The notes under the pieces: generated by a model
Told to the model about the DNA's origin: nothing
Database searches by the model: none
The model's input: the letters and a program-made list of their open reading frames with translations, nothing else
Part shown: positions 57,451 through 57,545 of the stretch, piece by piece
Numbering within the stretch: the first letter of the stretch is position 1
How the letters are laid out: the number at the start of each line of letters is the position of its first letter
Sequence record: PV691511.1
Length of the DNA: 64,000 nt
Origin: Escherichia phage WPEC2
Strand: one strand, 5' to 3'
Made by a program: the position numbers and the translations under genes

Positions 57451-57465
57451 ATAAACTCTCCTCTT

Positions 57466-57545
57466 TATTTACCCGACGCGCCCCTGTTGGGCGGAAAGGG
57501 TTGTACGCAAAATTTTTAGCTCCAATCGTCGGGTGTCCCGACTCC
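57466..57545 (-). other. GC-rich structured intergenic element
   Basis: Complementary segments ACCCGACG/CGTCGGGT and GTCGGGACACCCGAC-type hairpin within the 95-nt gap before the signal-peptide gene. Confidence 0.4.

Follow-up and report, generated by a model that had tools for sequence, protein, structure and literature searches.

Phapecoctaviruses are widely isolated as therapeutic coliphages, and the regulation of their early genes is uncharted. In Escherichia phage WPEC2 (PV691511.1), of which a stretch of 64,000 nt (the window) was analysed, a phAPEC8-like myovirus, a gap of 95 nt lies between two early genes, one for a small zinc-ribbon-like protein and one for a secreted, disulfide-containing protein of unknown function, access to which the gap probably controls. 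What, then, does this spacer do? Our analysis indicates that it probably serves to control the secreted-protein gene that follows it.

Anatomy of the spacer

Both flanking open reading frames lie on the minus strand, and the sense strand of the gap is the minus strand. The features discussed below are as follows (hp1 and hp2 denote the two hairpins in their order on the sense strand).

57546-57752, minus strand: upstream gene, 68 aa, zinc-ribbon-like (CxxC...CxxC), phrog_24734, function unknown
57451-57545, minus strand: intercistronic leader, 95 nt, from the stop of the zinc-ribbon-like gene to the ATG of the signal-peptide gene
57496-57544, minus strand: ultra-conserved core, 49 nt, GAGUCGGGACACCCGACGAUUGGAGCUAAAAAUUUUGCGUACAACCCUU, near-identical in the L022 lineage
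57528-57542, minus strand: hp1, GUCGGG-ACA-CCCGAC, a perfect 6-3-6 hairpin, -8.2 kcal/mol
57502-57527, minus strand: A/U-rich tract, 26 nt, GAUUGGAGCUAAAAAUUUUGCGUACA, unpaired in the centroid structure
57471-57501, minus strand: hp2, two-tier stem-loop ACCC-UUUC-CGCCC-AACAG-GGGCG-CGUC-GGGU, about -14.1 to -14.4 kcal/mol
57471-57478, minus strand: 3' arm of the long-range complement, CGUCGGGU, with its partner ACCCGACG at 57527-57534
57456-57464, minus strand: Shine-Dalgarno (SD) region AGAGGAGAG of the signal-peptide gene, unpaired in the centroid structure
57052-57450, minus strand: downstream gene, 132 aa, phrog_26124, function unknown

The original prediction, made from the letters alone, described inverted repeats and a 6-3-6 hairpin in a GC-rich gap next to the SD of the signal-peptide gene, and this description holds. 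Specifically, the inverted-repeat search returned hp1 (arms GTCGGG 57528-57533 and CCCGAC 57537-57542), which begins 3 nt past the stop codon of the upstream gene, an 8-nt inverted repeat (ACCCGACG/CGTCGGGT, 57471-57478 / 57527-57534) and, within the A/U tract, the palindrome AAAATTTT. The G+C content of the gap is 0.50 against 0.32-0.45 nearby, and the SD core GGAG (57458-57461) lies 7 nt ahead of the ATG; the SD region carries an RBS annotation in ESCO13 and is kept in all lineages, including those that lack the element. The second stem-loop, hp2, which went unmentioned in the prediction, ends 20 nt before the ATG, and the tract between the hairpins includes the A5U4 run AAAAAUUUU at 57509-57517. 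The 132-aa product of the downstream gene has an N-terminal Sec-type signal peptide (MKKIIVGLLLLIASLGTANA|SQ) and two conserved cysteines (Cys26/Cys129).

Both hairpins form with pair probabilities of at least 0.96 (0.96-1.0 for hp1), and in the local fold ranking of the sense strand hp2 stands 11th among about 32,000 windows of 32 nt. The minimum free energy (MFE) structure adds just weak A-U/G-U pairs within the A/U tract and draws the last bases of the SD region into a weak A-U/G-U outer helix.

The neighbourhood is rich in indels, with a gene of 81-82 aa and a mini-ORF variably present directly downstream, and the gap is the only long non-promoter spacer within about 7 kb of tightly packed early genes.

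Conservation and distribution of the leader

The leader is present once per genome in 63 phage records. Judged by genome comparison, the gap is a structured element under purifying selection, conserved far above neutral expectation, and is the most conserved stretch of its neighbourhood. Among 17 Phapecoctavirus genomes, which were picked for gap variants, its diversity is 0.018 as opposed to 0.068 at third codon positions, about 4-fold lower. The L022 lineage, found in metagenomes, extends this pattern over a greater distance: its flanking genes are 64% identical to those of WPEC2, and 48 of the 49 core positions are the same. The longest exact run shared with L022 spans 35 nt, the next best in the neighbourhood 17 nt, and within that lineage the leader is 100% identical across 11 contigs from different samples. 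The check in homologous phages that the original prediction had called for thus found the gap sequence conserved, with hp1 unchanged in all ten distinct sequences compared and the three core substitutions (57503, 57506 and 57509) all falling within the A/U tract. The outer stem of hp2 (ACCC/GGGU) is conserved as well, and in the L022 lineage its inner stem is swapped for a different hairpin, GACGACCA-UAG-UGGUCAUC, with an inner stem of 8 bp; the shape of hp2 is evidently retained while its inner sequence is free to change. The covariation sought in the same comparison did not emerge, as no pair is altered on both sides in the two lineages available, each of which is nearly invariant. The wobble pairs disagree on the strand: the U-G pair created by a C-to-U change in hp2 (Schickermooser, nieznany) favours the sense strand, and the C.A mismatch of the L022 hp2, a G.U pair if read on the antisense strand, would favour the opposite. 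The proposal of a regulatory RNA structure is borne out in part: selection, the leader position and the retained shape of hp2 speak for it, the fold of the gap as a whole is unremarkable (z = -0.76 sense, -0.92 antisense), and its mechanism is one that we infer.

Within the genome the core is single-copy even when 3/15, 5/22 and 10/35 mismatches are tolerated, and a mobile or repeated element was rejected, no second copy being present there. Searches of IMG/VR, GTDB genomes, and E. coli genomes and plasmids returned no copy of the element, JGI metagenomes yielded one phAPEC8-like genome and two chance 20-mers with no further copy, and IMG/VR searches for the protein family found nothing. Two more distant lineages lack the element: in the clade-2 relatives L023, L024, L057 and L058, the same two genes are joined by just 12-15 nt (junction sequence TAAcagaggagaaataatATG). 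It follows that the element is either an insertion here or a deletion elsewhere, parting two otherwise tightly coupled cistrons. These relatives own the gene pair without the leader, and we accordingly rejected a 'moron' cassette in which the leader travels with the secreted-protein gene.

Two further observations were set aside. Contigs L063 and L064 start inside hp1, and this is an assembly branch (k-1 = 30) at a single T/C difference between co-occurring lineages instead of a biological end. A 10-nt inverted repeat, TTGCGTACAA, flanks the secreted-protein gene (57500-57509, 57058-67) at chance level (E = 6.9) and is not conserved in L022.

Comparison with known classes of element

Rfam 15 gave no match at the gathering threshold in the 64-kb window, and at E <= 10 across 57300-57700 just one chance match to RT-9, outside the gap (15.1 vs 46.1 bits). 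ARAGORN found no tRNA or tmRNA genes in the window. A CRISPR-repeat mimic is not indicated either: there was no match in E. coli genomes, and the hp1 arms occur in tandem only in unrelated GC-rich repeats (exact arms only, 185,579 species genomes, a search of limited sensitivity). No transcript map for the Phapecoctavirus genus was found in the published literature.

The closest relatives by layout are the phage's own early cassettes, in which a promoter is followed by a 5' stem-loop (TTGACA-16/17-TAnnnT-...TAGGGCGG stem-loop-SD) and which the phAPEC8 record labels 'host dependent promoter (MEME)' and 'promoter (PHIRE)'. Cassettes and gap both have an A/G-rich SD, lie in the early small-ORF arm and pass from a conserved upstream part to a GC-rich stem-loop that lacks a U tract and precedes the ATG by about 15-20 nt (about 15-19 nt in the cassettes, 20 nt for hp2). 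By contrast, the gap has no TTGACA -35 element and no TAGGGCGG motif, carries an extra upstream hairpin, and is single-copy, against about 20 cassette copies at the two genome ends. An nhmmer profile of the cassettes recovers the two in the window (63718-63800 and 63353-63435; E = 1.5e-19 and 1.6e-13) and leaves the gap unmatched even at E <= 100; with a position weight matrix (PWM) of the cassette -10/start region, the gap site ranks 330th of 128,000 positions. Cassette membership, proposed from a resemblance at TTGCGTA, was rejected, the resemblance being non-significant and both the nhmmer and PWM results negative. A scan for sigma-70 promoters (-35/-10 hexamers, 16-18-nt spacing, at least 9/12) listed none within the gap, where the closest approach seen on inspection, GGGACA-16-AAAAAT, scores 8/12, under the scan threshold. 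As no sigma-70-like promoter turned up in the gap, read-through from upstream promoters is the default source of its transcripts. Sigma-54, sigma-28, T4 late and Mot boxes were also discarded on inspection, their spacing or consensus being absent.

The promoter-early stem-loops (PeSLs) of T4-type phages (Arbiol et al. 2010, PMC2839356; Comeau et al. 2014, PMC4122927) are similar to the gap in being small intergenic composites with a G-rich/C-rich stem-loop first, in a plastic early region and linked to indels; here, the element is present in clade 1 and not in clade 2, and a gene indel adjoins it on the downstream side. In PeSLs the stem-loop is followed by a near-consensus sigma-70 or Mot-type promoter, and the multiple copies are substrates for recombination (PMC4122927). 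Unlike them, the gap has no near-consensus early or middle promoter behind its stem-loop and is unique in its genome, several similar copies per genome being the rule for PeSLs.

Intercistronic processing and stability elements include the RNase III sites of the T7 early region, hairpin-flanked RNase E sites and 5' stem-loops such as that of the ompA leader. Like them, the gap has stable hairpins on both sides of an unpaired A/U-rich tract at a cistron junction, and a stem-loop a short way upstream of the SD. RNase III requires a duplex of roughly 20 bp, about two helical turns, and the helices of the gap (6 bp, and 4+5 bp) are too short for it. RNase E prefers RN|WUU, as mapped for the Salmonella and E. 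coli enzymes; a single-stranded, A/U-rich stretch of this kind does lie between the two stable stem-loops, and the A5U4 run, as read from the sequence, fits the preference, a low-specificity motif so common in AT-rich sequence that it has no discriminating power. The invariant run of 35 nt differs from such sites in holding far more sequence information than processing or stability normally needs.

Candidate roles of the leader

Tentatively, we favour a single-copy, cis-acting mRNA leader between the two cistrons, by which the secreted-protein gene is uncoupled from its upstream neighbour and to which hp2 contributes a protective 5' stem-loop. Under this model, the element would serve as a module for insulation, processing and stability on a polycistronic early mRNA. 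The secreted-protein message would gain a new 5' end in the A/U tract, most simply through RNase E-type cleavage at AAAAA|UUUU; hp1 would stay on the upstream message as a 3' cap, and hp2 would then lie near the new 5' end as its protective stem-loop, about 20 nt from the ATG, where the canonical early promoter cassettes of the phage also have their 5' stem-loops. The RNA-level role, with its cleavage and stabilising functions, would allow expression of the secreted-protein gene to be set independently of the upstream gene.

The 35 invariant bases exceed what a processing or stability site needs and suggest that a protein or RNA polymerase recognises the sequence specifically. There is some chance, though a minor one, that the 49-nt core is the site of a hitherto undescribed sequence-specific factor and thus a new phage regulatory motif, a reading left open by the 35 invariant bases, the single copy and the failure of every tested known class. 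Such a site may take the form of an RNA operator made of hairpin and tail (in processive antitermination or translational control), a promoter that depends on a factor and has a palindrome as its -30 box, or an RNA decoy for a host nuclease. If the core is a specific processing site, promoter or protein operator, it would offer a handle on the expression of individual early genes in the genus and would also supply a compact insulator part; a gap that only provides stabilising hairpins would be nothing out of the ordinary.

Two alternatives to the insulating leader come next in likelihood. In one, which is possible if rather unlikely, the gap holds a non-canonical, possibly factor-dependent promoter, and hp2 is the 5' stem-loop of a monocistronic mRNA. 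A -10-like AAAAAT (57512-57517) would precede a start near 57503-57506, and the hp1 palindrome, centred near -31, would take over from a -35 element and serve as operator or activator site. The core then covers about -38 to +10 of the proposed start, which is the footprint of a promoter, and all three known core substitutions fall between the -10 element and the start, where promoters are least constrained. As in the canonical early cassettes, a conserved upstream part leads into a variable stem-loop and then the SD, the local string TAAAAATTTTGCGTA resembles TATAGTTATTGCGTA of one cassette, and other gaps of the genome have a hairpin and then a promoter. The sigma-70 and cassette results given above tell against this account, however, as do the sigma-54 spacing (GG-N13-GC, read from the sequence, vs the N10 needed), the occurrence of the core motif once per genome, which argues against a promoter class, and the PHIRE and MEME promoter searches of the phAPEC8 authors, in which nothing was annotated at the gap. 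In the other alternative, which we consider unlikely, a sequence-specific protein binds hp1 with its 3' tail as RNA, or the palindromes GTCGGGACACCCGAC and AAAATTTT as DNA; the binder may be a phage or host factor, possibly the adjacent zinc-ribbon protein. Direct read-out would best explain why the 35 invariant bases include a loop and a single-stranded tail, the core occurs once in the genome, a perfect 6-3-6 palindrome is what a dimeric binder typically recognises, and a small CxxC...CxxC protein is encoded directly upstream. Yet phiWec179, phiWec190, PsgM04F, L023, L024 and L057 have the zinc-ribbon gene but not the element, and 60-90 nt separate the core from the SD, a long way for a translational operator. 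The gap region bears no resemblance to the lambda boxA consensus.

The other accounts fare less well. The discrete small RNA that the original prediction had also entertained, on either strand and processed, for example, from hp1 to hp2 with the unpaired tract as seed, is improbable: two hairpins around a conserved, unpaired 26-nt tract are an sRNA-like layout, but neither lineage has a conserved promoter upstream (the upstream sequence of L022 differs), no U tail follows either hairpin on either strand, and the Rfam searches and those of E. coli genomes and plasmids were negative. An intrinsic (rho-independent) terminator or attenuator at hp2, which is very improbable, is what TransTermHP and WebGeSTer called in MZ726793 (ASO2A), and the gap does resemble such terminators in that GC-rich, stable hairpins (hp1, -8.2 kcal/mol; hp2, -14.1 kcal/mol) follow a stop codon. 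No U tract, however, begins within 0-2 nt of either stem (tails GAUUGGAG and AAAUAAAG), whereas the genuine terminators of the window have U runs; our terminator scan did not list the gap, the ARNold-based annotation of phAPEC8 has no call there, and WebGeSTer also calls promoter-proximal 5' stem-loops of the same genome terminators. Hardly credible is a switch in which CCCGAC(G) pairs either with the upstream GUCGGG, as in hp1, or with the downstream CGUCGGGU, regulating the downstream gene. The complementarity between ACCCGACG and CGUCGGGU that was originally singled out exists, and the two helices are mutually exclusive, but the MFE structure is favoured over the long-range conformer by 3.1 kcal/mol (-27.2 vs -24.1 kcal/mol), and the long-range pairing has an ensemble probability of 0.003. 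Perfect inverted repeats of at least 8 nt are at chance level: 7.3% of all 95-nt windows of the sequence hold one, as do 5% of dinucleotide-shuffled versions of the gap. The helix is broken, never with compensation, by a G-to-A change at one pair in four of the ten distinct sequences, by a GGG-to-GAG change in tuntematon, and in L022, where two pairs are lost. Since neither conformer sequesters the SD, the riboswitch-like toggle has no output, and the conserved, exclusive helices with SD sequestration or a terminator that mark riboswitches and attenuators were not found.

Just as far-fetched is a micro-ORF, either an antisense one of 18-20 aa ((M)YAKFLAPIVGCPDS..., from TTG 57501 on the plus strand) or the sense-frame ESGHPTIGAKNFAYNP. 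The substitutions at 57503, 57506 and 57509 are synonymous third positions in these frames, and in neither lineage does a stop interrupt the antisense frame within the gap. Against this, the two lineages, 64% identical elsewhere, agree at 14 of 15 third positions, so that the constraint acts on nucleotides and not on codons. The antisense frame has no ATG, its sole start being a TTG abutted by AAGGG with no spacing, which KKP3954 turns into TTA; the sense frame has no start codon, is frameshifted by G-insertion variants and would be entered through recoding that differs between the two lineages. A small protein-coding gene was rejected on these grounds: no properly spaced start, breaks in the frame and conserved third positions. 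A functionless leftover of gene rearrangement would suit the indel-rich neighbourhood, with its variably present 81-82-aa gene and mini-ORF, and is nevertheless very doubtful, given that the gap is conserved far beyond what neutral drift would leave.

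Structure of the intercistronic gap

The window phage is a phAPEC8-like myovirus (Phapecoctavirus, Stephanstirmvirinae), and 63 phage records match the 801 bases around the gap with 95–100% identity. All genes of the gap neighbourhood are carried by the minus strand:

57546-57752, minus: upstream gene, a 68-aa zinc-ribbon-like ORF (CxxC...CxxC)
57451-57545, minus (sense): the 95-nt gap, UAA-GGAGUCGGGACACCCGACGAUUGGAGCUAAAAAUUUUGCGUACAACCCUUUCCGCCCAACAGGGGCGCGUCGGGUAAAUAAAGAGGAGAGUUUAU-AUG
57528-57542, sense: first hairpin (hp1), GUCGGG-ACA-CCCGAC
57471-57501, sense: second, two-tier stem-loop (hp2), ACCC-UUUC-CGCCC-AACAG-GGGCG-CGUC-GGGU, -14.1 kcal/mol
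57052-57450, minus: downstream gene, a 132-aa ORF with a Sec-type signal peptide

Both inverted repeats of the original prediction (57471-57478 with 57527-57534, and 57528-57533 with 57537-57542) are present, together with a AAAATTTT palindrome, and the gap is indeed richer in G+C than its flanks (0.50 versus 0.32–0.45). As a whole, its fold is unexceptional compared with its own shuffles (z = -0.76 sense, -0.92 antisense), and a perfect inverted repeat of at least 8 nt is no rarity, being present in 7.3% of the 95-nt windows across the 64-kb sequence and in 5% of gap shuffles. The stem-loop hp2, absent from the original description, ranks 11th among the ~32,000 sense-strand 32-nt windows; those ranked higher include a few hairpins within genes, one promoter-proximal stem-loop and several terminator-like hairpins with U tails. 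Ensemble pair probabilities are 0.96–1.0 for hp1 and hp2. The long-range helix originally proposed between 57471-57478 and 57527-57534 is not supported: its ensemble probability is 0.003, the conformer that contains it lies 3.1 kcal/mol above the MFE, and relatives break it (G-to-A in five genomes, GGG-to-GAG in tuntematon), never with compensation. The element is laid out as hp1, an unpaired A/U-rich tract, hp2 of conserved shape, and the SD of the secreted-protein gene, unpaired in the centroid structure.

A conserved single-copy element present in one clade

This is a real, conserved, single-copy cis-element under purifying selection. In an alignment with 16 relatives, most of them picked on purpose for differences in the gap, 8 of the 95 gap columns vary (diversity 0.018), as against 63 of 276 third codon positions in three neighbouring genes (0.068) and diversities of 0.000–0.017 at first and second positions; the gap is therefore constrained like non-synonymous sites. 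Throughout this alignment hp1 is invariant, and hp2 shows one C-G pair changed to U-G. The covariation check of the original prediction gave no formal covariation, with 0 pairs altered on both sides.

Searched exhaustively with HMMER, the 132-aa protein yielded two diverged full-length homologues (64% and 45% identity), and a profile search added two further clusters; contigs for these homologues were retrieved. The proteins form two clades, one uniting the window lineage with P0002 (64% identical) and the other P0003/P0013 with P0014 (62% identical), with ~45% identity across them. The P0002 lineage, for which 11 contigs were obtained, each set from different samples, has a 100-nt gap after the zinc-ribbon gene (UGA-GCGCCA-GAGUCGGGACACCCGACGAUUGGAGCUAAAAAUUUCGCGUACAACCCUU-GACGACCAUAGUGGUCAUC-UGCGGGUAAACCAAGAGGAGAGGAAA-AUG). 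Between the two lineages, a 49-nt core (57496-57544) is identical at 48 of 49 positions, versus 64% for flanking-gene DNA; its longest exact run is 35 nt, the next longest run is 17 nt, and no other 49-nt window in ~1.8 kb exceeds 43/49. Immediately past the core, the P0002 lineage carries another sequence in the interior of hp2, which again forms a hairpin (GACGACCA-UAG-UGGUCAUC), within a retained outer ACCC/GGGU stem and followed by a retained SD; the long-range complement is down to 5 contiguous pairs (6/8 in total).

The element is absent from the sister clade, where the zinc-ribbon and secreted-protein genes lie 12–15 nt apart (for example, TAAcagaggagaaataatATG) and no trace of it was found at the four junctions (L023, L024, L057 and L058). 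The element (~80 nt) is therefore an insertion or deletion between otherwise tightly coupled cistrons, and its arrival with the secreted-protein gene is rejected because this clade has the gene pair without it. Two independent Logan contigs, L063 and L064, have their first base within hp1, at a distance of exactly 30 nt upstream from the one position (T/C) where the cores differ; these starts are not biological ends but an assembly-graph branch (k-1 = 30), which shows that samples SRR21291484 and SRR17326397 each contain both lineages.

Across the whole genome, covered by combining the window with ASO2A 1–40 kb and phAPEC8 60–147.7 kb, the core is single-copy even when tolerating 3/15, 5/22 or 10/35 mismatches. 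No copies were found in E. coli genomes, plasmids, one genome per GTDB species or IMG/VR, and in JGI metagenomes only one phAPEC8-like genome and two chance 20-mers matched. A CRISPR-repeat mimic, suggested by the hairpin and a AUUGGAGC-type tail, is not supported by a search for exact arms, the tandem hp1 arms in GTDB genomes being unrelated GC-rich repeats. A 10-nt inverted repeat bracketing the secreted-protein gene (TTGCGTACAA at 57500-57509, TTGTACGCAA at 57058-57067) is no more than expected by chance (E = 6.9) and is not conserved in the L022 (P0002) lineage.

Relation to known elements and candidate functions

The window contains no tRNA and no Rfam family at the gathering threshold, with none at E <=10 in 57300-57700. 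The phage has its own large family of early-arm cassettes, built from a near-consensus sigma-70 promoter (TTGACA-16/17-TAnnnT), a conserved start region (...TAT(C/T)AC(A/G)TAGGGCGG), a GC-rich 5' stem-loop lacking a U tract, and an A/G-rich SD; ~20 of them were seen, at the two ends of the genome:

63718-63800 and 63353-63435, minus: cassettes in the window
L021 234-4741: nine cassettes, ASO2A left end
L070 38700-42600: about nine more in the phAPEC8 segment 105–147.7 kb, mostly at the right end, annotated as MEME and PHIRE promoters

Their stem-loop GGGCGGCAATGGTGCCGCTC, which recurs nearly identically and is a 'PHIRE promoter' in phAPEC8 and a 'terminator' in ASO2A, is a putative mRNA 5' stabiliser or protein site. 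The gap resembles the cassettes in that hp2 and their stem-loops are equally far from the ATG, but membership is rejected: a profile that finds both in-window cassettes does not match the gap at E <=100, and by the cassette -10/start PWM the gap site is 330th of 128,000 positions. T4-type PeSLs are multi-copy, indel-associated stem-loops with a near-consensus promoter (PMC4122927); they resemble the element only in beginning with a stem-loop and in their association with indels. The element represents a new sequence family, though of a general kind already known, the intercistronic or 5'-leader stem-loop element of a phage early operon.

We tentatively favour an intercistronic module acting on the mRNA. 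A new 5' end of the secreted-protein message would be made within the A/U tract, where AAAAA|UUUU matches the RN|WUU preference of RNase E; the upstream message would keep hp1 as its cap, while the new 5' end would be shielded by hp2, as the canonical cassette stem-loops presumably do. The main weakness of such a module is that 35 invariant bases exceed the needs of a processing site, which leaves room for two rivals. One, a promoter of non-canonical and perhaps factor-dependent type, could account for all three core substitutions falling between a -10-like AAAAAT and hp2, but it fails every promoter test run, including a scan that found no sigma-70-like site in the gap, and we consider it unlikely. 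The other, a protein operator in RNA or DNA, is a rather improbable candidate.

Other explanations are each very improbable. A rho-independent terminator is annotated at hp2 in the ASO2A record (TransTermHP and WebGeSTer predictions), an annotation that calls its own genome's promoter-proximal stem-loops terminators too; our scan found no terminator-like site in the gap, a U tract is absent after both hairpins, and the phAPEC8 record (ARNold, PHIRE and MEME) marks nothing there. The core substitutions among the sequences compared (57503 in KKP3954, 57506 in BI-EHEC and 57509 in L022) lie exactly 3 nt apart, which could be chance (~1 in 9), and on each strand they fall in an open frame, at third positions where the change is synonymous. 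A micro-ORF was rejected: the lineages agree at 14 of 15 third positions, the sole antisense start, a TTG abutted by an SD-like AAGGG, becomes TTA in KKP3954, and the sense frame lacks a start codon and is shifted by a G insertion in five genomes. Of the 'regulatory RNA structure or small RNA' of the original prediction, a conserved structured cis-element is supported; the small RNA joins a switch built on the long-range pairing and functionless sequence among these very improbable readings.

Neighbouring genes, indels and database records

The 132-aa secreted protein is labelled 'RNA ligase' in the EF1-1 and SF1-1 records, probably an annotation error. Several stretches are weakly similar (E 1e-5 to 1e-7) to repeated domains of giant proteins of 2,000–5,000 aa (P0005–P0009), and the protein may correspond to one copy of an adhesin-type repeat domain. 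Directly downstream of its gene lies an indel hotspot (window 57040-57052; compare L002 1543-1873 and L008 1019-1131). ESCO37, REC, nepoznato and the metagenomic lineages carry an 81–82-aa gene and a mini-ORF there, both deleted in the window phage. The mini-ORF, absent from the window, is conserved, hydrophobic and 20 codons long, MIE(I/T)IIF(A/V/I)..LG(F)L(M/I)YE*, and lies upstream of the homologue of the 151-aa gene in phiWec179, phiWec190, PsgM04F and ESCO37, unannotated in all four, where the region is called intergenic:

L003 2724-2786, minus: mini-ORF
L004 2724-2786, minus: mini-ORF
L005 2976-3037, minus: mini-ORF
L002 1553-1614, minus: mini-ORF

Elsewhere in the window, an inverted repeat, TGACAGAAGGATCTGTCTTTGTCA, surrounds a strong promoter (54355-54383, minus; TTGACA-17-CATAAT with TG) and is possibly an operator overlapping it; ASO2A labels this promoter/inverted repeat a terminator. 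Near-identical phAPEC8-like genomes are filed as Acinetobacter phage vB_AbaM_ABPW7 (99.8%), Campylobacter phage B15 and Klebsiella phage ZCKP1, and the more distant Pseudomonas phage PsgM04F has in common only the zinc-ribbon gene (~60% identical protein) and gene order; the host labels of these four records look doubtful.
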